Source: a virus (Duplodnaviria; Heunggongvirae; Uroviricota; Caudoviricetes). Taken from it: 52,859 nucleotides of DNA. Shown here piece by piece: positions 4,770 through 51,621 of this stretch. Each line of letters begins with the position of its first letter. Position 1 is the stretch's first letter. Below the pieces are notes generated by a model. The model had not been told where the DNA came from. It searched no databases and saw nothing but the letters and a program-made list of their open reading frames with translations. The stretch lies in the IMG/VR virus record IMGVR_UViG_2909303794_000004; one strand, 5' to 3'. The position numbers and the translations under genes were made by a program.

Positions 4770-4827
4770 AAAAAGGGCGGCAGAGCAGTCACGGAGTAAA
4801 ACTGATACCGCCAAACGTCACCAGAAA
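4770..4827 (-). ncRNA. dicF: DicF small regulatory RNA with intrinsic terminator
   Basis: minus-strand sequence UUUCUGGUGACGUUUGGCGGUAUCAGUUUUACUCCGUGACUGCUCUGCCGCCCUUUUU matches remembered DicF, including GC stem and U tail; located between ydfC and dicB. Confidence 0.8.
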
Positions 4828-5167: not shown

Positions 5168-5386
5168 CTAACGCGGGTATGTAATCATTCTGGCAATGCT
5201 TAATGCCGCTGCTTTTTCCAGATTGGTGATATCCTGCTCCAGAGCGGACAGATTTTCAGCCTGCTTAGCCCTGGTTTCATTGGCCCATTTCAAATCCTGC
5301 GCTGCATTAATTTTCTGGCGCATCCACTCATAAAGTTCATCATCGGTATAGTCTGGCGCGATGATGACGGGTTCTCGTTTCTGCAT
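5168..5386 (-). CDS. ydfC: YdfC-like small protein (72 aa)
   Basis: ORF in the dicB operon position between ydfB and dicF. Confidence 0.65.
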   Translation of the reverse strand: MQKREPVIIAPDYTDDELYEWMRQKINAAQDLKWANETRAKQAENLSALEQDITNLEKAAALSIARMITYPR

Positions 5387-5415
5387 ACTGATTCCTCGCG
5401 GTGCTGTTTCGCTTA

Positions 5416-5544
5416 TCAGCCGTTAGATTTTGCCGAACTGGAAAGCGCCTGTTTAAATTCGTTGAAGCTGAGAGCTTCTTCGCCGTCGGCAAGACCTTCG
5501 AAGTATTCTTCGTAAGCCTTTTCCATGATTGTGTCGAAATCCAT
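5416..5544 (-). CDS. ydfB: YdfB-like small acidic protein (42 aa)
   Basis: manually translated minus-strand ORF MDFDTIMEKAYEEYFEGLADGEEALSFNEFKQALSSSAKSNG; start 1 nt after the ydfA stop; below the 60-aa cutoff of the ORF track. Confidence 0.55.
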   Translation of the reverse strand: MDFDTIMEKAYEEYFEGLADGEEALSFNEFKQALSSSAKSNG

Positions 5545-5545
5545 A

Positions 5546-5701
5546 TCACTCACCTGGGTTTCTTTCCAGCCAGCGACGGGCACCATTTTCGGTTTTAAAC
5601 GTTTTGCTTTTGGTATACGTCATCGCGGTGAACGTACCGTCCTGGTTGGGGAACACGCCACATACCAGAGATTCGCTGTTGCCAAGATCGATAGTATCCA
5701 T
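5546..5701 (-). CDS. ydfA: YdfA-like small protein (51 aa)
   Basis: internal start MDTIDLGNSESLVCGVF… of the 69-aa track ORF; first gene downstream of dicA as in K-12. Confidence 0.6.
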   Translation of the reverse strand: MDTIDLGNSESLVCGVFPNQDGTFTAMTYTKSKTFKTENGARRWLERNPGE

Positions 5702-5815
5702 GCTGACCTCATTTCCCCTTAACGCCGGGGTAGCGGAACTGTTTGCTGAGAACACCGTGCGGTGTCTTGATGGAAAATAATTTAGAATAACCTAACATGA
5801 GAGGCAAGTGTTTTT

Positions 5816-5833
5816 TGTTAGATTGATCTAACA
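5816..5833. promoter_or_regulatory. operator-like palindrome TGTTAGA-N4-TCTAACA in the dicB-operon promoter region
   Basis: inverted repeat read directly (TGTTAGATTGATCTAACA) between the dicA stop and the ydfA start. Confidence 0.5.
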
Positions 5834-5869
5834 AAAAGGGTGGGCGCAACTAATCACTTGAAAAGAATG

Positions 5870-6277
5870 TTATTTTATTGATTTATTTTTACGCGCTTTA
5901 AGCATTTCTTCGAAGAGTTTGTTGAAGTTTTCTACTCTTGCGCGCATTTCAGACAGCAAGGCTTCCTGCTCGGAAGATGGAAGAGCATCGAATAATTCGA
6001 TCAATTCTTTGTGGTTGGGAGTTAGCTCTGTTTCCACATGAAGTTCTTGTGCAGGCACTGGTGCCTTGTCTTCGTCACCAAACATTAGCCATGTAGGTGA
6101 GCACTTCAGAGCATCCGCTAAAGCAAACAATCGTTTTCCGACTGGCTGGGTTTCGTCTCTTTCCCATTGTGAAATTGTGACGTGAGCAACTCCAGCGAGG
6201 CGCGCGGCTTCTCGTTGTGTTAAGCGTAATTCTTTTCGTCGCGCCAGAACTCGCTGGCCCAGGGTTCTTGTATCCAT
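5870..6277 (-). CDS. dicA: HTH XRE-family prophage repressor DicA (135 aa)
   Basis: N-terminal HTH (LTQREAARLAGVAHVTISQWERDE) and C-terminal …EMRARVENFNKLFEEMLKARK closely resemble remembered K-12 DicA; divergent from a Cro-like gene. Confidence 0.9.
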   Translation of the reverse strand: MDTRTLGQRVLARRKELRLTQREAARLAGVAHVTISQWERDETQPVGKRLFALADALKCSPTWLMFGDEDKAPVPAQELHVETELTPNHKELIELFDALPSSEQEALLSEMRARVENFNKLFEEMLKARKNKSIK

Positions 6278-6326
6278 AGTTAGGTAATTCTAATTTTTCT
6301 TGACTTAGGTATCCCGCGCACAATAA

Positions 6327-6344
6327 TGTTAGAAAGGTCTAACA
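6327..6344. promoter_or_regulatory. operator-like palindrome TGTTAGA-N4-TCTAACA in the dicA/dicC divergent promoter region
   Basis: TGTTAGAAAGGTCTAACA between the dicA start (6277) and the dicC-like start (6359); same half-sites as the 5816-5833 site. Confidence 0.55.
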
Positions 6345-6358
6345 AGAGGGGGGCTTTG

Positions 6359-6584
6359 ATGCTTAAAGTTGACGCAATTACTTTTTTTGGCAGCAAAACA
6401 AAGCTTGCCAATGCCGCAGGAGTGAGGCTGGCAAGTGTTGCTGCTTGGGGGATACTTTCCTGAAGGTCGCGCGATGCGTCTACAGGAGGCATCTGGCGGG
6501 GAGCTTCAGTATGATCCCAAAGTTTATGATGAATATCGTAAGACGAAGCGGGCGGGGCGGTTGAACAATGAAAATCACTCCTGA
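6359..6584 (+). pseudogene. dicC: Cro-like regulator DicC homologue, reading frame broken at a G5 run
   Basis: N-terminal HTH part (MLKVDAITFFGSKTKLANAAGVRLASVAAWG) stops at TGA 6461-6463; C-terminal part (…PEGRAMRLQEASGGELQYDPKVYDEYRKTKRAGRLNNENHS) is in the +1 frame to 6584; frames overlap at GGGGG 6447-6451. Confidence 0.5.
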
Positions 6585-7089
6585 ACAGGCTCGTGAGGCT
6601 CTGGATGCCTGGATATGTCGACCAGGAATGACACAGGAGCAGGCGACGATATTAATCACTGAAGCATTCTGGGCTTTGAAAGAGCGCCCGAACATCGATG
6701 TTCAGCGTGTCACAGATGAAGGTGGTGCGGTTGATCAGCGAGCGCTTGGTGTTAATCGAGTGAAGATATTCGAACGCTGGAAGGCTATCGACACCAGGGA
6801 TAAGCGTGAAAAGTTCACGGCGCTAGTGCCTGCGATTATGGAGGCTATCCGGATTAGTGATTTCAGGTTGTATCGTGAAATTACTGACGGAAAAAGCATC
6901 ACGTGCATGATCGCCGGGTTAAACAAAGAATATGGCGATGTGGTGGAGTCCGGACTGCTTTTTGCTGATCCTGCCGTAGTGGATCGTGAAACTGACGAAC
7001 TTATAGAAAAAGCAATTGCTTTCAAGCTTGCGTATCGACAGCAATACCAACAAAAAGCTGGATGGAATTATGAGCCTTCTTTTTGCTGA
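6568..7089 (+). CDS. hypothetical early regulatory protein, possibly YdaT/CII-like
   Basis: 173-aa ORF directly after the Cro-like gene and before the replication gene, the cII position; family assignment is a guess from memory. Confidence 0.45.
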   Translation: MKITPEQAREALDAWICRPGMTQEQATILITEAFWALKERPNIDVQRVTDEGGAVDQRALGVNRVKIFERWKAIDTRDKREKFTALVPAIMEAIRISDFRLYREITDGKSITCMIAGLNKEYGDVVESGLLFADPAVVDRETDELIEKAIAFKLAYRQQYQQKAGWNYEPSFC

Positions 7090-7990
7090 ACGCCCACTGG
7101 TTATAAACACGCAGCTGGCAATGAAAATTGGCTTAAACGAAGCCATTGTTTTGCAACAACTGCACTACTGGTTGAGAGATACCAACTCCGGCATGGAATG
7201 TGATGGTGTTCGCTGGATTTATAACACAACGGAACAATGGCTGGAACAGTTCCCATTCTGGTCAGAGTCAACGTTAAAGCGCGCGTTTGCAAGTCTGAAA
7301 ACGCTGGGGCTTTTGCGTTGTGAAAAGCTCAATAAATCAAAGCGCGATATGACCAATTTCTACACGATCAACTATGGGAGCGAGCTTTTAGATGGTGGCA
7401 AATTGAGCGAATCCATCGGTTCAAAATGCGCCGCTCCATCAGGTCAAAATGACACGATGGAAGAGGTCAAAATGAAACGCTCCATTGGTTCAAAACGACC
7501 CAATGTCATCGGGTCAAAATGGCCTGATGATCTTACAGAGAATACAACAGAGATTACTACAGAGAATAAAAACACTTTTCGTCCGGAAGCTTCGCAACCG
7601 GACCCGCAGACGACTGAACAGGATTCTTTAACCCGGAACTCCGACGCGGTTGTGTTTAGTGCGAAAAAACGCCAGTGGGGTAGCAGGGAGGATTTGGCGT
7701 GTGCGCAGTGGATCTGGGGGCGGATCGTGGGTCTCTACGAACAGGCAGCCAGTGATGATGGCGAGATCATGCGACCAAAAGAGCCTAACTGGACTGCCTG
7801 GGCCAATGACGTGCGCACAATGCGGATGCTGGATGGCAGAAGCCACAGACAAATTTGCGAAATGTTTGGTCGGGTTCAGCGAGATCCATTCTGGGTAAAA
7901 AACATCATGAGCCCGTCAAAGCTCCGCGAAAAAAAAATGGGACGAACTGGTCATCCGCCTGGGACGTTCACCTGTACAGCGTTGTGTTAA
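7070..7990 (+). CDS. phage replication initiation protein (lambda O analogue) with origin iterons inside the gene
   Basis: 306-aa ORF in the O position; N-terminal HTH-like domain; central region encodes a repeated IGSK motif generated by iterons. Confidence 0.75.
   Translation: MSLLFAERPLVINTQLAMKIGLNEAIVLQQLHYWLRDTNSGMECDGVRWIYNTTEQWLEQFPFWSESTLKRAFASLKTLGLLRCEKLNKSKRDMTNFYTINYGSELLDGGKLSESIGSKCAAPSGQNDTMEEVKMKRSIGSKRPNVIGSKWPDDLTENTTEITTENKNTFRPEASQPDPQTTEQDSLTRNSDAVVFSAKKRQWGSREDLACAQWIWGRIVGLYEQAASDDGEIMRPKEPNWTAWANDVRTMRMLDGRSHRQICEMFGRVQRDPFWVKNIMSPSKLREKKMGRTGHPPGTFTCTALC
7411..7523 (+). repeat. candidate replication origin: five direct ~18-bp iterons (consensus TCCATCNGGTCAAAATG) at 23-24 bp spacing, followed by an A-rich tract
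   Basis: repeats at about 7411, 7435, 7458, 7480 and 7505 read directly; A-rich ACAGAGAATA-type segment at 7530-7575; same arrangement as lambda ori inside O. Confidence 0.6.
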
Positions 7991-8079
7991 TCATATTTCT
8001 GAACCGGATACAGAAATTCCGCCTGGTTTCAGAGGATAAGTGTTGATTTCAGGTCATGAGGTAATTTTAAGGGGGACTT

Positions 8080-8502
8080 GTGGCAAAAGTTTTTACACAA
8101 GAAGAGCGGGAAAAAATTAAATGGCAGGTGGTGGAACTCGTGCGCCAGAGCGGCCGTGAGACGTTACGGCAACTGGAAGCTAAAACAGGTGCGACTAGAT
8201 ATCTGATGAGCGTTCTTGCCAGAGAGCTGGTAGCCAGTGGCGATGTATACAACTCCGGCTACGGGTTATTCCCCTCTGAACAGGCGCGTAAGGACTGGCA
8301 AAACGCCCGCAAAAAACTCTCGAGGGCAAAGGTGAAGAAACCTGCTGTGGTTGATCCGGACCTTATCTGGTCATCACCTGACGGAGAAATACGTCGCTAC
8401 GACAGTCGCCTAAACATAATCTGTCGCGAGTGCCGGAAGAGCGAAGTTATGCAGCGCATACTGGCTTTCTATCAGGGTAATTTTCAGGACGTGGCGCAGT
8501 GA
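8080..8502 (+). CDS. hypothetical phage protein (140 aa)
   Basis: GTG start 7 nt after a strong Shine-Dalgarno (AAGGGGGA); occupies the position of lambda P but is too small and unlike a helicase loader. Confidence 0.55.
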   Translation: MAKVFTQEEREKIKWQVVELVRQSGRETLRQLEAKTGATRYLMSVLARELVASGDVYNSGYGLFPSEQARKDWQNARKKLSRAKVKKPAVVDPDLIWSSPDGEIRRYDSRLNIICRECRKSEVMQRILAFYQGNFQDVAQ

Positions 8503-8844
8503 GTGCACCGGCAACCATTCTTGATATGTGCTGTGGCAGCCGCATGTTCTGGTTCGATAAGTCTGACGAACGGGCGATATTCAGCGATATCAGAAAAGAA
8601 GGATACACATTACGCAATGGGAGACGCTTGATTATCAGCCCTGACATTATCGCAGATTTTCGTGCATTATCATTTGCAGACGCATCTTTTTCGATGGTTG
8701 TATTAGACCCTCCGCATCTTGAGAGTGTTGGTGATAACGCCTGGATGGGAAAGAAATATGGACGGCTGAATAAAGATGCCTGGCGTGATGATTCGCGACA
8801 GAGATTTAAAGAAGCCTTTCGGGTGTTGAGGCCGCACGGCGTAC
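8499..8844 (+). pseudogene. DNA methyltransferase gene, 3' end removed by IS insertion
   Basis: SAM-binding motif ILDMCCGS and a DPPH(L) motif; reading frame runs into the IS629-like left end at 8845. Confidence 0.65.
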
Positions 8845-8898
8845 TGAACCGCCCCGGGAATCCTGGAGACTAAACTCCCTGAGAAAGAGGTAAACAGG

Positions 8899-9225
8899 AT
8901 GACTAAAAATACACGTTTTTCCCCCGAGGTCCGTCAACGGGCAGTTCGTATGGTTCTGGAAAGTCAGGGCGAATATGACTCTCAATGGGCGGCAATTTGT
9001 TCCATTGCCCCAAAGATTGGCTGTACACCAGAGACTCTGCGTGTGTGGGTTCGTCAGCATGAGCGGGATACCGGGAGTGGTGATGGTGGACTCACCACCG
9101 CTGAACGTCAGCGTCTGAAAGAGCTGGAACGTGAAAATCGTGAACTGCGCCGCAGTAACGATATCCTTCGCCAGGCTTCCGCTTATTTTGCGAAGGCGGA
9201 GTTCGACCGCCTCTGGAAAAAATAA
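8899..9225 (+). CDS. IS3-family transposase OrfA (108 aa)
   Basis: [50 protein letters not shown]… matches remembered IS629 OrfA. Confidence 0.9.
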
Positions 9226-10112
9226 TGCCGCTGCTGGATAAGCTGCGTGAGCAGTACGGGGTCGGACCGGTATGCAGTGAACTGCATATTGCCCCGTCAA
9301 CGTATTACCACTGTCAGCAACAGCGACATCATCCTGATAAACGCAGTGCCCGTGCTCAGCGCGATGACTGGCTGAAGAGAGAGATACAGCGCGTATACGA
9401 TGAAAATCATCAGGTGTACGGTGTGCGTAAAGTCTGGCGCCAGTTGTTACGCGAAGGTATCAGGGTGGCCAGATGTACAGTGGCGCGCCTCATGGCGGTT
9501 ATGGGACTTGCCGGTGTTCTCCGGGGTAAAAAGGTCCGTACTACCGTCAGCCGGAAAGCCGTTTCCGCAGGCGACCGCGTAAACCGTCAGTTCGTGGCAG
9601 AACGTCCTGACCAGCTGTGGGTGGCTGATTTTACTTACGTCAGCACATGGCAGGGCTTCGTCTATGTGGCGTTCATCATTGATGTGTTTGCCGGATGTAT
9701 CGTGGGGTGGCGAGTCTCATCGTCTATGGAAACGACATTCGTGCTGGATGCACTGGAGCAGGCGTTGTGGGCCCGTCGGCCGTCCGGCACAGTCCATCAC
9801 AGTGATAAAGGTTCTCAGTATGTATCACTGGCCTATACGGAGCGACTAAAAGAAGCAAAACTGCTGGCATCAACAGGGAGTACAGGTGACTCGTATGACA
9901 ACGCGATGGCGGAGAGCATCAATGGTCTTTACAAAGCGGAGGTAATACACCGTAAGAGCTGGAAAAACCGTGCAGAAGTGGAACTGGCCACACTCACGTG
10001 GGTGGACTGGTATAACAATCGACGATTGCTGGGAAGGCTGGGTCATATCCCTCCGGCAGAAGCAGAAAAAGCTTATTATGCTTCCATCAGAAACGATGAT
10101 CTGGCAGCCTGA
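9225..10112 (+). CDS. IS3-family transposase OrfB (DDE domain)
   Basis: 295-aa ORF overlapping orfA in the -1 frame near an A-run, typical of IS3-family OrfAB. Confidence 0.9.
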   Translation: MPLLDKLREQYGVGPVCSELHIAPSTYYHCQQQRHHPDKRSARAQRDDWLKREIQRVYDENHQVYGVRKVWRQLLREGIRVARCTVARLMAVMGLAGVLRGKKVRTTVSRKAVSAGDRVNRQFVAERPDQLWVADFTYVSTWQGFVYVAFIIDVFAGCIVGWRVSSSMETTFVLDALEQALWARRPSGTVHHSDKGSQYVSLAYTERLKEAKLLASTGSTGDSYDNAMAESINGLYKAEVIHRKSWKNRAEVELATLTWVDWYNNRRLLGRLGHIPPAEAEKAYYASIRNDDLAA

Positions 10113-11500: not shown

Positions 11501-11855
11501 ATACAGCGAACTCCATTGGTTTAGTTGGATATTTACTGTGCTGGACAAAAACGGTTTGCGGGGAAATCTTAGTTAAGTAGAATGACTGCGGGTGCTTGAG
11601 GCTATCTGCCTCGGGCATGGACACCAACGGCAGATAGAGAAAAGCCCCAGTTAACATTACGCGTCCTGCAAGACGCTTAACATTAATCTGAGGCCAATTT
11701 CATGCTAGACACATGTAGGTTAGCCTCTTACGTGCCGAAAGGCACGGAGAAGCAGGCTATTGTTAACACCAAGCTGTAATGTCCCCTTTGAACCATTCTA
11801 AAATGTCCCCAGACAATTCTCTGGGGGATTTTTCATAATCAAAGAGACTGTTACG

Positions 11856-13148
11856 ATGAGTCATAAGGAACTCCACCGACTTCAGATTATTCAGGAACAA
11901 GCTGCGGCACGCATTGGCATTTCTATTCGGCAGGTTAAACGTCTGGTGCAACGGTATAGAAATGAAGGGCCTTCTGGTCTGGTTTCCCACCGACGTGGAA
12001 AGCGTCCTAATAATTCCTTTTCTACTGAATTCAGAGCAACAGTAATTTCACTCCTCAAAGGCCGTTACGCTGATTTTGGACCTACGTTTGCGTGCGAAAA
12101 ATTGCGCGAGATACACGGTTTATCTTTATCCGTTGAAACTCTCAGAAAGTGGATGATAGAAGAGGGGTTATGGCGTGAACGCCGTCGTAAAATTGCCCGT
12201 ATATATCAACGCCGCATGCGACGACCATCTTACGGTGAACTGATCCAGATTGATGGCTCACCTCATGACTGGTTTGAAAATCGAGGCCCCAGATGTACAC
12301 TGATCGTTTTCATTGATGATGCCACCAGTGCGTTGATGGCGTTGCGTTTTGTGCCTGCTGAAACAACCCGGGCTTACATGGAAACCCTCCGGGGTTACCT
12401 TAATGATCATGGCGTACCGCTCGCTCTCTACTCTGATAGACACAGTATATTCAGGGTAAATAACCCAGAGCGGGAAGGTGAGCTGACCCAGTTCACTCGT
12501 GCGATAAAGACACTGGGCATCGAGCCAATCCATGCCAACAGCCCGCAGGCAAAAGGGCGGGTAGAGCGCGCCAATCAGACACTACAGGACAGGCTGGTCA
12601 AAGAAATGCGGCTTCAGAATATCAGTGATATTGAAACAGCAAATGCATGGTTGCCGACCTTTATTGAAGCCTATAACAACCGGTTCGCTACGTCGCCTCG
12701 TACTACTGATAATGCTCATCTTGATGTGCACCATTCTGAAGAGGAACTGGGTTATATCTTCAGCCTACAGGCGAAGCGCGTTCTGTCTAAAAATCTCACT
12801 TTCCAGTACAAAAGCAGTGCGTTTCAGGTACGCAGTGAGGGCCGGGGATATCGACTTAGGCATTCGGTTGTTACTGTATGCGAGAACTTTGACGGTGAAA
12901 TTAACGTTCTGTATGACGGGAAAGCGCTGGGCTGGGAAAAGTATGTTGATGGCCCGGAGCCTATACCACTGGATGATGAAAAGAGTGTCCATGAACGAGT
13001 GGATAATGCCCGTATTGATTTACGCTCAAAATACTATGTTAAACCTAAAGCTGACCATCCCTGGCTTACGCGCCGAACGCAAAGTCATCAGCAAGTTAAG
13101 CCCCCGAAGTTACCTAAAAAGAAGCCTGATCCCGATAAAAAAGATTGA
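11856..13148 (+). CDS. DDE (rve-type) transposase with N-terminal HTH, IS481-family-like
   Basis: 430-aa ORF; HTH followed by integrase core (…IDDATSA…YSDRHSIF…HANSPQAKGRVERANQTL…); element ends not resolved. Confidence 0.8.
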   Translation: MSHKELHRLQIIQEQAAARIGISIRQVKRLVQRYRNEGPSGLVSHRRGKRPNNSFSTEFRATVISLLKGRYADFGPTFACEKLREIHGLSLSVETLRKWMIEEGLWRERRRKIARIYQRRMRRPSYGELIQIDGSPHDWFENRGPRCTLIVFIDDATSALMALRFVPAETTRAYMETLRGYLNDHGVPLALYSDRHSIFRVNNPEREGELTQFTRAIKTLGIEPIHANSPQAKGRVERANQTLQDRLVKEMRLQNISDIETANAWLPTFIEAYNNRFATSPRTTDNAHLDVHHSEEELGYIFSLQAKRVLSKNLTFQYKSSAFQVRSEGRGYRLRHSVVTVCENFDGEINVLYDGKALGWEKYVDGPEPIPLDDEKSVHERVDNARIDLRSKYYVKPKADHPWLTRRTQSHQQVKPPKLPKKKPDPDKKD

Positions 13149-14566: not shown

Positions 14567-16105
14567 ATGAACGACATCTCTTCTGACGACATCTTCCTGC
14601 TGAAACAGCGCCTGGCCGAACAGGAAGCGCTGATCCACGCCCTGCAGGAAAAGCTGAGCAACCGGGAGCGCGAAATAGACCATCTGCAGGCGCAGCTGGA
14701 TAAACTCCGCCGGATGAACTTCGGCAGTCGTTCCGAAAAAGTCTCCCGCCGTATCGCACAAATGGAAGCCGATCTGAACCGGCTTCAGAAAGAGAGCGAT
14801 ACGCTGACTGGTAGGGTGTATGACCCGGCAGTACAGCGTCCGTTGCATCAGACCCGCACCCGTAAGCCGTTCCCTGAATCACTACCCCGTGACGAAAAGC
14901 GACTGTTGCCTGCGGCGCCGTGCTGCCCGAACTGCGGCGGTTCACTGAGCTATCTGGGCGAGGATACCGCCGAACAGCTGGAGTTGATGCGTAGCGCCTT
15001 CCGGGTTATCCGGACGGTACGGGAAAAACATGCCTGTACTCAGTGCGATGCCATCGTGCAGGCACCTGCACCTTCGCGGCCCATCGAGCGGGGTATCGCC
15101 GGACCGGGGCTGCTGGCCCGCGTGCTGACCTCGAAGTATGCAGAGCACACCCCGCTGTATCGCCAGTCAGAAATATACGGCCGGCAAGGTGTGGAGCTGA
15201 GCCGTTCACTGCTGTCGGGCTGGGTGGATGCATGCTGCCGGCTGCTGTCTCCGCTGGAAGAGGCGCTTCATGGCTATGTCATGACTGACGGCAAACTCCA
15301 TGCCGATGATACCCCGGTCCAGGTACTGCTGCCGGGTAATAAGAAGACGAAGACCGGGCGGTTGTGGGCGTATGTTCGTGATGACCGCAATGCCGGGTCA
15401 GCGTTGGCACCTGCAGTGAGGTTCGCTTACAGCCCGGACAGAAAAGGCATCCATCCGCAGGCTCATCTTGCTTGCTTCAGCGGTGTGCTGCAAGCGGATG
15501 CGTACGCCGGGTTCAACGAGCTGTATCGCAATGGTGGGATAACGGAAGCTGCCTGCTGGGCTCATGCCCGCCGAAAGATCCACGATGTGCACGTCCGCAT
15601 CCCGTCAGCACTGACGGAAGAAGCCCTGGAGCAGATCGGTCAGTTGTACGCCATAGAGGCGGATATAAGGGGAATGCCGGCAGAGCAGCGGCTTGCTGAA
15701 CGTCAGCGAAAAACGAAACCGCTGTTGAAATCCCTGGAAAGCTGGTTGCGTGAAAAGATGAAGACCCTGTCGCGACACTCAGAGTTGGCGAAGGCGTTCG
15801 CGTACGCACTTAACCAGTGGCCGGCACTGACGTACTATGCGAACGATGGCTGGGTGGAAATCGACAACAACATCGCTGAAAATGCCCTGCGGGCGGTCAG
15901 TCTGGGTCGTAAAAACTTCCTGTTCTTCGGCTCTGACCATGGTGGTGAGCGGGGAGCGCTACTGTACAGCCTGATCGGGACGTGCAAACTGAATGACGTG
16001 GATCCAGAAAGCTACCTTCGCCATGTGCTTGGCGTCATAGCAGACTGGCCGGTCAACCGGGTCAGCGAACTGCTTCCGTGGCGCATAGCACTGCCAGCTG
16101 AATAA
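14567..16105 (+). CDS. IS66-family transposase (orf3)
   Basis: 512-aa ORF with N-terminal coiled-coil/leucine zipper and cysteine cluster (CPNCG…CTQCD), typical of IS66 transposases. Confidence 0.9.
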
Positions 16106-20917: not shown

Positions 20918-21217
20918 AAAAATTCCTTAATACTGATAACTTGGCGCACTATACACACGTTCCTGAAGAAAGCTATAGTTTTTTGATGGGGTTGAAGATG
21001 GCTGGATGTCTAAAATAAACATTGCTTCATATGTTCAACTATGCGTTAATGATTGCGTCGGTTTGAAGAACAGACGATATACGAAGTAGTTTACTAAAGC
21101 AGTTCTCATTTCAGGTGTTATTCACTTATTCCTTCTTTGAGTCTCTCCAATTAAGTACGAAGTCGTTTCTGTTATGCAAACCATTTATGCCGAAAGGCTC
21201 AAGTTAAGGAATGTAGA

Positions 21218-21433
21218 ATGTCAAATAAAATGACTGGTTTAGTAAAATGGTTTAACGCTGATAAAGGTTTCGGCTTTATTTCTCCTGTTGATGGTAGTAA
21301 AGATGTGTTTGTGCATTTTTCTGCGATTCAGAATGATAATTATCGAACCTTATTTGAAGGTCAAAAGGTTACCTTCTCTATAGAGAGTGGTGCTAAAGGT
21401 CCTGCAGCAGCAAATGTCATCATTACTGATTAA
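21218..21433 (+). CDS. cspB: cold-shock protein CspB (71 aa)
   Basis: [67 protein letters not shown]… near-identical to remembered CspB. Confidence 0.9.
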
Positions 21434-21714
21434 AATTCATCGCTCGTCTGTATACGATAACGAAGAAGGCTGATGCCTGAGTAGAGATACGGACAGAGTA
21501 GTGAATATTGGATCTCTTTAATAAAAAGTAAGGAGGTCCAATACATGAAACAATGGCTAGCATATTTGGCAAAATCTTAATCAGGAAAAGTATGCTAACC
21601 ATTGTGGTGAAGTGCAGGTTTGCTGCATGAATAGTTTTACAGCAGAAGCTAACTGCTGGCATGGCAAAACAAAGTGCGTAAGTGGATGACTCCCACAAAA
21701 AGCACCACAATCTC

Positions 21715-22874: not shown

Positions 22875-23765
22875 TCAGGCTGCCAGATCATCGTTTCCGA
22901 TGGAAGCATAATAAGCTTTTTCTGCTTCTGCCGGAGGAGTATGGCCCAGCCTTTCCAGCAATCGTCGATTGTTATACCAGTCCACCCACGTGAGTGTGGC
23001 CAGTTCCACTTCTGCACGGTTTTTCCAGCTCTTACGGTGTATTACCTCCGCTTTGTAAAGGCCATTGATGCTCTCCGCCATCGCGTTGTCATACGAGTCG
23101 CCTGTACTTCCTGTTGATGCCAGTAATCCGGCTTCCTTAAGCCGCTGTGTGTAGGCCAGCGATACATACTGAGAACCTTTATCACTGTGATGGACTGTGC
23201 CGGACGGTCGACGGGCCCATAACGCCTGCTCCAGAGCATCCAGCACAAATGTCGTTTCCATAGACGATGAGACCCGCCACCCCACGATGTATCCGGCAAA
23301 CACATCAATGATGAACGCCACATAGACGACCCCCTGCCATGTGCTGACGTAAGTAGAATCAGCCACCCACAACTGGTCAGGACGTTCTGCCACGAACTGA
23401 CGGTTTACGCGGTCGCCTGCGACAACGGCTTTCCGGCTGATGGTCGTACGGACCTTTTTACCACGGAGAACACCGGCAAGTCCCATAACCGCCATGAGAC
23501 GTGCCACAGTGCATCTGGCCACTCTGATACCTTCCCGTAACAACTGACGCCAGACTTTACGCACACCGTATACCTTGTGATTTTCATCGTATACGCGCTG
23601 TATCTCTTTCTTCAGCCAGTCATCGCGCTGCGCACGGGCACTGCGTTTATCCGGATGATGTCGCTGTTGCTGACAGTGGTAATACGTTGACGGGGCAATA
23701 TGCAGTTCGCTGCATAGCGGTCCGACCCCGTACTGCTCACGCAGCTTATCCAGCAGTGGCATCAT
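22875..23765 (-). CDS. IS3-family transposase OrfB
   Basis: 296-aa ORF homologous to 9225-10112. Confidence 0.9.
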
Positions 23766-24088
23766 TTTTTCCAGAGGCGGTCGAACTCCGCCTTCGCAAA
23801 ATAAGCGGAAGCCTGGCGAAGGATATCGTTACTGCGGCGCAGTTCACGATTTTCACGTTCCAGCTCTTTCAGACGCTGACGTTCAGCGGTGGTGAGCCCG
23901 CCATCACCGCCTCCGGTATCCCGCTCATGCTGGCGTACCCAGACACGCAGAGTCTCCGGTGTACAGCCAATCTTTGGGGCAATGGAACAAATTGCCGCCC
24001 ACTGTGAGTCATATTCGCCCTGACTTTCCAGAACCATACGAATCGCCCTCTGACGGACTTCGGGGGAAAAACGAGTATTTTTAGTCAT
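23762..24088 (-). CDS. IS3-family transposase OrfA
   Basis: 108-aa ORF, 2 substitutions relative to copy 1. Confidence 0.9.
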
Positions 24089-25055: not shown

Positions 25056-25416
25056 GGTAATATTAAATCGGAACATTTACATCGCGGAATGTAAAATTTG
25101 AATAAAAAGGACTCTTCCATGAGCCAAAATTCCTGAAATCTTAAGGGTAAGATAAAAGGTCTTAATCAGAATGACACGTTTTATTAATAAATAAAGCTAT
25201 TCTTTCATTGCTGTGTTTTTCTTTACAAAAGTAATCCTTGCTATGGGTGGTTAATCATGCGTTAATGGTGTTCTGGTTTGTTACAAATTTATCTGAAGCA
25301 GTCATTGTTATAATTTTATTATTTGTACCTCTTGAGATTTCCTTGTTGGTTTTTCTCTCTGATATTTTTTTCGGACCATTCTGCCCAAGGGCTAATTTCT
25401 TCAAAAGGTAATAATT

Positions 25417-25629
25417 ATGTCTAACAAAATGACTGGTTTAGTGAAATGGTTTAACCCTGAAAAAGGTTTTGGTTTCATCACGCCGAAAGATGGCAGCAAA
25501 GATGTGTTTGTCCATTTCTCAGCAATTCAGAGCAACGATTTCAAAACATTAACTGAGAATCAGGAAGTTGAATTTGGTATTGAGAACGGACCTAAAGGTC
25601 CTGCCGCTGTTCATGTAGTGGCGCTTTGA
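25417..25629 (+). CDS. cspI: cold-shock protein CspI (70 aa)
   Basis: [70 protein letters not shown] matches remembered CspI. Confidence 0.9.
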
Positions 25630-25835
25630 GGTAGACAATATTACAAACCATATTCACTTTAGATGCCCGTGTTGTCATGGTTCCCAGTATAGAACATCAT
25701 CTTTTGATGTTTCTGACATGAATCCTTTCGGGGCAAAATGTATCTTTTGTAAATCAATGATGATTACATTTGATAATATTTCACAATACTTAAATGCCAG
25801 CCGTCTGTCGTTGGATTTAAAAAAGTGAAAATGAA

Positions 25836-51046: not shown

Positions 51047-51621
51047 TGGCATTCAGAATGAGTGAACAACCACGGACCATAAAAATTTATAATCTGCTGG
51101 CCGGAACTAATGAATTTATTGGTGAAGGTGACGCATATATTCCGCCTCATACAGGTCTGCCAGCAAACAGTATCGATATTGCACCGCCAGATATTCCGGC
51201 AGGCTTCGTGGCTGTTTTCAACAGTGATGAGGCATCGTGGCATCTCGTTGAAGATCATCGGGGTAAAACGGTTTATGACGTGGCTTCCGGCGACGCGTTA
51301 TTTATTTCTGAACTCGGTCCGTTACCGGAAAATGTTACCTGGTTATCGCCGGGAGGGGAATATCAGAAGTGGAACGGCACAGCCTGGGTGAAGGATACGG
51401 AAGCAGAAAAACTGTTCCGGATCCGGGAGGCGGAAGAAACAAAAAACAGCCTGATGCAGGTAGCCAGTGAGCATATTGCGCCGCTTCAGGATGCTGCAGA
51501 TCTGGAAATTGCAACGGAGGAAGAAATCTCGTTGCTGGAAGCATGGAAAAAGTATCGGGTATTGCTGAACCGTGTTGATACGTCAACTGCACAGGATATT
51601 GAATGGCCAGCACTGCCGTAG
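51046..51621 (+). CDS. tfa: tail fibre assembly protein Tfa (191 aa)
   Basis: start overlaps the stf stop; size and position as lambda tfa. Confidence 0.85.

Follow-up and report, generated by a model that had tools for sequence, protein, structure and literature searches.

A putative iteron-type replication origin within the O-like initiator gene of a decaying lambdoid prophage of Escherichia coli

Introduction

Why does a replication gene carry, in the middle of its own reading frame, an ordered series of DNA repeats followed by an A-rich tract? The question is raised by an O-like replication initiator gene in a viral DNA sequence of 52,859 nucleotides (IMG/VR record IMGVR_UViG_2909303794_000004), a stretch that we refer to in its entirety as the window. 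The source element is a lambdoid Escherichia coli prophage of the Qin/DicA-immunity type, full-length outside the dicBF-type immunity region. An initial annotation of this DNA had proposed that the repeats are the iterons of a replication origin placed inside the initiator gene, as in phage lambda. From sequence comparison, we find that positions 7390-7575 are very likely the vegetative replication origin of the prophage, embedded in the region that codes for the initiator's linker. All computational tests of the proposal spoke in its favor, namely conservation at the DNA level, co-variation of the iteron arms, recurrence in a family of homologous genes, a minimum of duplex stability, and a linker predicted to be disordered.

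Anatomy of the Candidate Origin

We identified six units phased at 23 bp, five strong and one weak, at 7390-7529, with the core G(G/T)TCAAAAYG (Table 1). A repeat search recovers five in-register copies at 7411-7529 with start-to-start spacings of 23, 23, 23, and 24 bp, and Tandem Repeats Finder (TRF) reports a period of 23 at 7412-7485. On the + strand, the 103 bp of 7419-7521 contain five copies of the core GKTCAAAAYG, and the rest of the 52.9 kb has one more, with 0.61 occurrences expected over the whole window; none of 100 dinucleotide shuffles gets to six. The five repeats and the 23-24 bp phasing described in the initial annotation are therefore present, and the array does sit mid-gene in an open reading frame (ORF) that occupies the O position and is flanked by a cII/YdaT-like gene and a DUF977 gene. 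The description of the repeats as five direct repeats of about 18 bp needs correction in both form and number: the units are near-palindromes of about 23-27 bp (TCCATCnnGTCAAAATGACnnGATGGA), and a sixth, degenerate one stands 23 bp upstream. A scan for two-fold symmetry places one dyad center in each unit, all in register and with 7-10 of 13 pairs matched, a level (at least 7 of 13) seen at only 2.7% of window positions. The counterpart of the degenerate unit in relatives is a good iteron, GAGGTCAAAGTGAC. Scanning the 52.9-kb window for the core motif revealed no comparable repeat cluster elsewhere.

Adjoining the array is the A-rich segment that had been reported to follow the repeats, and its composition agrees with that report: 7529-7575 is 51% A, and the GC content of 0.33 in 7520-7579 is a local minimum. 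Within it, 12-mers of the form ACAGAGAWTACW occupy 7533-7568, and TRF finds a period of 12 at 7535-7568. The least stable 46-bp duplex in 6300-8600 is 7527-7572, at a free energy of -51.4 kcal/mol; the regional mean is -63.5 with a standard deviation (sd) of 3.6, which makes the departure 3.4 sd. We read this block as an unwinding element, with an additional role as a recognition element or a recombination boundary being possible. A motif scan found no DnaA boxes near the origin; the only match in the neighborhood falls at 8091, and the window as a whole shows no enrichment of the motif.

Table 1. Features of the initiator gene and of the DNA around it, by position in the window.
Feature	Position	Strand	Details
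DicF RNA	4775-4826	-	Part of the Qin-type immunity region
ydfA/ydfB/ydfC-like small ORFs	5168-5755	-	Adjoin the DicA-like repressor gene
DicA-like repressor gene	5870-6277	-	Divergent from the cro/dicC-like gene
pR-like promoter	6300-6327	+	TTGACT-16-AATAAT; 10/12 consensus matches; consensus match only
cro/DicC-like gene	6359-6584	+	In two ORFs, 6326-6463 and 6435-6584
cII-like/YdaT-family gene	6568-7089	+	On the 5' side of the initiator ORF
O-like replication initiator gene, frameshifted here	7070-7990	+	ATG at 7070; authentic frame to about 7937; in relatives, the intact gene would extend to 8039
N-terminal winged-helix-like domain (residues 1 to about 105), presumed iteron-binding	7070-7384	+	AlphaFold2 model, H-H-b-b-H-H-b-b
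Iteron 0, degenerate here	7390-7413	+	Core GGCAAATTGA at 7396-7405; dyad center 7402; 7/13 pairs; 23 bp before iteron 1
Iteron 1	7414-7436	+	Core GTTCAAAATG; dyad center 7425
Iteron 2	7437-7459	+	Core GGTCAAAATG; dyad center 7448; 10/13 pairs; best palindrome, TCCATCAGGTCAAAATGACACGATGGA
Iteron 3	7460-7482	+	Core GGTCAAAATG; dyad center 7471; outer arms degenerate
Iteron 4	7483-7505	+	Core GTTCAAAACG; dyad center 7494; 9-mer TCAAAACGA in common with lambda iteron 1
Iteron 5	7506-7529	+	Core GGTCAAAATG; dyad center 7518; 9/13 pairs
A-rich block, presumed DNA-unwinding element	7530-7575	+	Three 12-mers, ACAGAGAATACA / ACAGAGATTACT / ACAGAGAATAAA
Lambda-O-like C-terminal domain (residues about 183-289)	7616-7937	+	BLASTP to lambda O, E 1e-26; helical in the AlphaFold2 model
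A9 homopolymer (A5 in relatives)	7929-7937	+	+4 frameshift, last 32 residues lost; alignment with PhiR42_1 and mEp460_ev081, direct reading
Out-of-frame remnant	7938-8039	+	Still codes for the C-terminal end with the DnaT-like tail, ...VNHISEPDTEIPPGFRG*; translation

Conservation and Alternative Explanations

Close relatives of the gene are common. Of 5,426 complete E. coli genomes, 518 contain at least 80% of window 5800-8900, and most copies of the gene in them bear the PGAP/RefSeq label 'hypothetical protein'. The gene is 99.4% identical to a 966-nt gene of phage PhiR42_1, and identity runs at 96-99% across PhiR42_1, HannyBb, and mEp460_ev081. Its N-terminal domain (N-domain) reaches much further, with at least 551 viral contigs of IMG/VR and the genomes of 183 species carrying it, and more than 4,000 protein clusters match the initiator. 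The genera include Escherichia, Citrobacter, Klebsiella, Pantoea, Xenorhabdus, Providencia, Pseudomonas, Acinetobacter, Comamonas, and Psychrobacter, as well as, at 45-57% identity, Neobacillus, Staphylococcus, Limosilactobacillus, and clostridia. Among 107 phage records with the domain are those of Staphylococcus aureus phages 96, 42E, and phiIPLA88, Bacillus phage TP21-L, Lactobacillus phage mv4 (ORF292), and Pseudomonas phage AF.

The arrangement seen in the window recurs in this family. Our comparative set comprised 79 full-length homologous genes, from Enterobacterales to Bacillota (loci L088-L167), and all counts over it are uncorrected for shared ancestry. In about 50 of the 79, the strongest periodicity is 22-24 nt and starts at the end of the N-domain (z 5-15 against codon shuffles); at least three phased CAnnnYG cores are present in 51, and in 53 the 260 nt that follow the N-domain contain two or more CAGAGA motifs. 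About 50 of the genes hence have a common plan of winged-helix N-domain, 23-bp iterons, (CAGAGAnTAC)n, and variable C-terminal domain (C-domain). A search of related prophages for the same iteron had been proposed with the initial annotation as a check; in the homologous genes, the phased core recurs.

The array can be followed at the level of both nucleotides and peptide. Among ten relatives at 70-100% amino acid identity, third-position and amino acid identities are 0.57 and 0.85 in the N-domain, 0.81 and 0.69 in the iterons, 0.97 and 0.79 in the 12-mers, and 0.51 and 0.49 downstream of the 12-mers. In the iterons and 12-mers, purifying selection therefore acts on nucleotide sequence and not on the encoded peptide. 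The 23-nt period distributes the units over all three frames, in which they read SIGSK(C), (P)SGQND, (E)EVKMK, SIGSK(R), and VIGSK(W). The repeated IGSK peptide that the initial annotation had pointed out does occur three times in the translation, but it comes from only three of the five units, the others giving SGQND and EVKMK. Since 23 is not a multiple of 3, IGSK is a by-product of the DNA repeat and not a peptide repeat.

The 12-mers have a family-wide consensus of WACAGAGAWTACW, which over 174 units reads W-A-C-A-G-A-G-A-W-T-A-C-W, and the block is near-identical among phages of E. coli, Klebsiella, and Pantoea despite diverged flanks. In members from Staphylococcus, Limosilactobacillus, Hydrogenimonas, and Paenalcaligenes, CAGAGAnTAC recurs at 11-12 nt in two or three reading frames, and because the motif is found there in different frames, the 12-mer is taken to be a DNA signal too. 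A 40-nt stretch, 7529-7568, is also 97.5% identical to the O gene of many phages converting to Shiga toxin (Stx) types Stx1a or Stx2a (L003:2501-2540). The Stx-phage O genes that share it have other iterons (GGGAAAC type) and other N- and C-domains, followed by DnaC-like and DnaB-like genes, and the common stretch looks like either a shared origin module or a recombination boundary. The block might accordingly have been kept not as an unwinding element but as a peptide linker (TENTTEITTE), or as a recombination 'linker' between N-domain/iteron modules and C-domain modules. Its 12-nt period is in frame, it lies at the exact junction of differing C-domains, and its 40 nt recur in O genes that are otherwise unrelated. 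We nevertheless consider this alternative unlikely, as the third positions of the 12-mers are 97% identical, the motif is read in more than one frame in the members named above, and the block is the regional stability minimum; moreover, roles in recombination and in unwinding are compatible.

Rather less probable is that the iterons serve control only, through autoregulation, a transcription roadblock, copy-number handcuffing, or incompatibility, with initiation taking place elsewhere in the prophage. Plasmid iterons also act in control, the array lies within a transcription unit downstream of a pR-like promoter, and its link to initiation rests on sequence, not experiment. Set against this are the constant coupling of the array to the adjacent low-stability 12-mers, both being kept at one junction across phyla, and the absence from the window of any other repeat cluster with the core. 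In addition, the same layout is found in proven origins, those of lambda, with its annotated iterons, and of plasmid pSK41 (PMC5703833).

The seven central nucleotides of the iteron, CAAAWYG, are kept as sequence, and the arms on either side vary by lineage. The E. coli form is GGGT-CAAAATG-ACCC; Pantoea and Mixta have GAGGG-CAAATTG-CCCTC and AGGA-CAATTTG-TCCC, Comamonas GGTG-CAAtTTG-CACC, Limosilactobacillus GGAT-CAAAATG-ATCC, and Cellulosilyticum TGCT-CAAAATG-AGCA. Over 27 distinct arm pairs, 77 of 108 positions agree between the left arm and the right arm's reverse complement, as opposed to 48.8 +/- 3.9 with shuffled partners (0 of 10,000 shuffles reach 77), and the innermost arm position alternates between T:A, G:C, A:T, and C:G. 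Such co-variation looks like that of a two-fold symmetric protein-binding site with changing partner specificity. The palindromes could also be hairpins, either in the initiator mRNA or in single-stranded DNA (ssDNA), controlling translation or stability or pausing ribosomes between the domains; the complementarity of left and right arms is kept across lineages, and RNA of 7385-7585 folds at z = -2.6 against shuffles, with one hairpin per palindrome. We regard this as very improbable. Where arm positions are not complementary they are A:C and G:A, not the G:U expected of RNA stems; the center is conserved as sequence, which a loop would not need; an RNA role would explain neither the strict 23-nt phasing nor the adjoining 12-mers; and Rfam gives no family match in the region. 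The three copies of IGSK in the translation might speak for a tandem repeat at the protein level that serves the initiator in its structure or in binding. This reading can be dismissed almost outright, as the units fall in three frames (two of the five reading SGQND and EVKMK), the iteron segment is below the N-domain in amino acid identity and above it in third-position identity, third codon positions are better conserved there than the amino acids, and the segment bearing IGSK is predicted to be disordered.

The Initiator Protein

The initiator matches PHROG 391, 'replication initiation O-like', at E 2.2e-79 (residues 17-288 against profile positions 11-259 of 298), and has no Pfam or NCBIfam match except one to its DnaT-like tail, discussed below. 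The protein had been described as not resembling lambda O, which is accurate for its N-domain but not for its C-terminal half. The N-terminal 110 residues have no similarity to the N-terminus of lambda O, either pairwise or with a 45-sequence profile (hhalign E 0.47), and the protein has no match to Pfam PF04492 (Phage_rep_O) at E <= 1, a profile that lambda O itself matches at 5.7e-36. By comparison, residues 147-294 of the intact protein are 34% identical to lambda O 135-270 (E 1e-26), in agreement with the 'O-like' PHROG label. The C-terminal half of lambda O is its P-interacting part. None of 51 diverse family members has a Pfam match in the N-domain, with PF06970 (RepA_N) included in the comparison. 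We also considered whether the N-domain is homologous to lambda O, Stx-type O, or a solved structure and set the idea aside, sequence similarity being absent or weak.

An AlphaFold2 (AF2) model of an intact copy, of moderate quality (mean predicted local distance difference test score, pLDDT, 54), has a winged-helix-like N-domain at residues 10-101 (pLDDT 65-75) and a helical C-domain at residues 183-297 (pLDDT 70-84). Residues 103-177, at pLDDT 22-29, correspond to the segment encoded by the iterons and 12-mers (residues about 108-169). The origin DNA is thereby predicted to encode a disordered linker between the N- and C-domains, and since it would encode merely such a linker, its sequence would be free to evolve as a DNA signal. 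The best PDB matches of the N-domain in Foldseek are 4pql_B and 5kbj_H (probability 1.0, E 6e-3, template modeling (TM) score on the target 0.55-0.57, root-mean-square deviation 3.0-3.2, 101 columns), from entries entitled 'N-Terminal domain of DNA binding protein' and 'Structure of Rep-DNA complex', which we take to be staphylococcal RepA_N proteins. The N-domain of DnaD appears lower in the list.

Two further features of the protein were observed. An alignment of 45 members shows 15 invariant residues across phyla in the N-domain of about 105 residues: A17, G21, L22, N23, E24, A25, L28, Q29, Q30, Y33, W49, W57, T68, R71, and L76. In some E. coli genomes, a deletion joins the YdaT/cII-like ORF in frame to the initiator, producing a 448-aa chimera (P0001, in 56 contigs) that lacks about 40 YdaT residues and the first five residues of the initiator and that its sources name 'toxin YdaT family protein'.

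Proposed Mechanism and Points Against It

Repeat anatomy, constraint at the DNA level, arm co-variation, conservation of the plan, and the stability minimum are all read directly from the sequences. For the events at the origin, we infer binding by the N-domain, unwinding of the 12-mers, and firing from the parallels with lambda and pSK41. The initiator would be expressed by rightward transcription from the pR-like promoter, and its winged-helix N-domain would bind, as dimers, the six 23-bp-phased palindromes with their central A-tract (arm-CAAAAYG-arm'). The resulting nucleoprotein array might then open the adjacent purine-rich block of 12-mers at 7530-7575, on which the replicative helicase would be loaded. 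As a separate hypothesis, the initiator may bring in the host's DnaB/DnaC through a partner docked on its DnaT-like tail.

Several points weigh against this picture. The literature search yielded no experimental binding, unwinding, or firing for any member of the family. The fold assignment is suggestive only, coming from a mediocre model (mean pLDDT 54) and weak Foldseek E-values (6e-3). Arm complementarity is also expected of RNA or ssDNA hairpins, and the RNA fold has a z of -2.6. The near-identity of the 12-mers in Enterobacterales could come in part from recent recombination at the module boundary, and the comparative counts over the 79 genes include shared ancestry. The initiator is frameshifted in the window, and this copy is probably defective or made only at a low level. 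Plasmids that carry the gene might have served as natural proof of autonomous replication, a line that we gave up: the 161 matching records are mostly non-mobilizable circles of 40-55 kb, the two inspected are whole phage genomes, and as whole circular phage genomes such records provide no such proof. Lastly, the helicase-recruitment step is conjecture, as the function of the DnaT tail is undefined in the portions of the literature covered.

Comparison with Known Replication Systems

Among the closest known arrangements is that of lambda ori and O, together with phi80, 82, and Stx variants, in which the origin is likewise located mid-initiator gene and consists of four to six dyad iterons at a spacing of about 20-24 bp with a central A-tract. 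The four annotated iterons of lambda (L004:1135-1219) each consist of a 4-nt arm, CAAAACG or CAAATTG, and a complementary arm, at a spacing of 20-24 bp; CCCT-CAAAACG-AGGG in lambda and GGGT-CAAAATG-ACCC in the window share one grammar. The A-rich block is on the same side of the iterons, the gene follows cro and cII behind pR, and the C-domain is homologous. The likeness of the iterons, despite N-domains without sequence similarity, could reflect either distant homology or convergence. The window differs from lambda in the unrelated sequence of its N-domain, in the lack of a P gene next to the initiator, and in the DnaT-like tail that replaces the lambda O C-terminus in relatives. It also differs in its A-rich block, which is an ordered set of three 12-mers conserved across phyla. 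In the A-rich region of lambda, we observed one exact CAGAGAAT and looser look-alikes; a limited look found no convincing 12-nt phasing there.

A similar layout is known from plasmids with RepA_N initiators. In the Rep protein of pSK41, the N-terminal domain binds four Rep boxes located centrally in its own gene, the segment encoded by the origin is a linker, and the C-terminal domain is host-specific (PMC5703833). The two systems share the three-part layout, with origin repeats that are central in the gene and encode the linker. The modeled N-domain bears a modest structural similarity to the RepA_N N-terminal domain (TM 0.55, E 6e-3; mean pLDDT of the model, 54). The window protein is different in having no Pfam RepA_N match, in belonging to phages and prophages rather than plasmids, and in its family's lambda-O-like or Phg_2220_C C-domains.

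As an origin, the locus is ordinary, given that ori within the O gene is expected for lambdoid phages. The layout is already known from lambda (ori in O) and RepA_N plasmids (ori in rep), the gene is already 'O-like' in PHROGs, and the phage records of PHROG 391 bear automated labels of 'DnaD-like helicase loader' or 'replication initiation protein'; this member itself is undescribed. Our literature search found no description of iterons, 12-mers, or origin mapping for any member, with a prior account in the 2006 replication-module review of Weigel and Seitz being possible. Relative to the databases and literature searched, the anatomy of the origin, the two-part grammar across phyla, and the loader-less, DnaT-tailed design are new. 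The initiator type is common and mostly annotated 'hypothetical protein', and its anatomy would permit automatic origin annotation. The co-varying arms may also serve as a natural data set on how the DNA specificity of winged-helix initiators changes.

The DnaT-like Tail and Helicase Delivery

The intact protein ends in QRCVNHISEPDTEIPPGFRG, and its last 20 residues match DnaT of E. coli K-12 (residues 160-179) at 14 of 20 positions (70% identity, E 9e-8). The tail codons lie at L001:4458-4517 in intact relatives and at 7980-8039 in the window, out of frame. The NCBIfam DnaT equivalog NF002770 is matched at 16.2 bits (cut-off 201) and at profile positions 160-179 only; the RAST label 'Primosomal protein I' on the genes of relatives is due to this tail. 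The resemblance between DnaT and the intact relatives is confined to these 20 residues, as BLASTP finds no similarity to the N-domain, the linker, or the three-helix-bundle ssDNA-binding domain of DnaT. Residues 160-179 of DnaT are described, in the part of a restart review that was covered, as a highly flexible 20-residue C-terminal tail (PMC5778457). The portions covered of that review (PMC5778457), of a preprimosome cryogenic electron microscopy study (PMC13377028), and of a DnaT-ssDNA structure paper (PMC4132743) give no partner for the tail.

Close relatives have no P, DnaC, or DnaB gene adjoining the initiator, and none is present among the larger ORFs of the window. The (I/V)PxGFR(G/S) tail itself is found on two types of C-domain, lambda-O-like and Phg_2220_C. 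We compared the tails in the 79 genes with the content of the 2.6 kb downstream, scoring homologues of helicases or loaders, in a count not corrected for shared ancestry. The DnaT-like PxGFRG tail was accompanied by such a homologue in 0 of 26 cases. The WNSPEAWENTL tail was followed by a lambda P homologue in 2 of 2, and the GFSEQDYG..NW tail by DnaC-like plus DnaB-like genes in 5 of 5. The tail may therefore be a docking peptide that sets the route by which the helicase arrives, with the DnaT-like version recruiting the host's DnaB/DnaC via its docking partner, a suggestion that we put forward tentatively, as possible rather than probable. Tails of other members are acidic or aromatic, such as EDFRFDDET, and one, DDLPF (L147), resembles the tail of SSB, a protein that binds ssDNA.

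A broader and still more doubtful extension of this suggestion is that of a very large family of 'solo' initiators spanning phyla (Enterobacterales, Pseudomonas, Vibrio, Staphylococcus, Bacillus, and lactobacilli), of which the initiator studied here would be the type example, with universal 23-bp iterons of the form arm-CAAAWYG-arm' followed by (WACAGAGAWTACW)n. The 12-mer might then be a specific recognition or loading element and more than plain A/T-rich DNA, and the tails interchangeable docking peptides for a lambda-P-type loader, a DnaC/DnaB pair, or the host machinery. If true, the solo-initiator idea would give the flexible tail of DnaT a function. The loader-less, DnaT-tailed relatives would in any event offer a handle on DnaB recruitment without a phage loader and on the binding partner of the DnaT tail.

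In the window, the tail is lost from the initiator through the expanded homopolymer listed in Table 1, and the authentic C-terminus, WDELVIRLGRSPVQRCVNHISEPDTEIPPGFRG*, is readable out of frame in the remnant. Slippage from A9 to A8 would restore the frame with one extra Lys, so the defect might be leaky.

Prophage Context

The pR-like promoter is placed as expected relative to the divergent DicA-like repressor gene, with the cro/dicC-like gene directly downstream. A rightward transcript from it would take in cro, the cII-like gene, the initiator gene, and the origin in one run. The cro/DicC-like gene is frameshifted, with 2 bp missing between 6456 and 6457 relative to E. coli 1368KP. On the 3' side of the initiator are the DUF977 gene and then a gene for an S-adenosylmethionine (SAM)-dependent methyltransferase, and the remainder of the window includes integrase, RecE-like exonuclease, Q antiterminator, terminase, and tail genes. 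The prophage is in decay, with frameshifts in the initiator and the cro-like gene and several insertion sequence (IS) insertions, and the origin DNA itself is intact.

Across 8499-8873 and 8899-10112, the methyltransferase gene is split by an IS3-family element that has two transposase ORFs and, at 9180-9296, an ALIL frameshift pseudoknot. Another ALIL match with a transposase is found at 22875-23807 on the minus strand. More decay and insertions are visible in the early-right cluster, with a sok antitoxin RNA match (11590-11761), an rve-type transposase (11856-13148), and an IS66-family transposase (14567-16105). Elsewhere on the + strand, two matches to the cspA thermoregulator 5' untranslated region family, at 21057-21449 and 25272-25656, suggest cold-shock-protein genes carried by the phage. 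Close to the right end of the window, at 51389-51587 (+), there is a 221-bit match to the Rfam family IS009.

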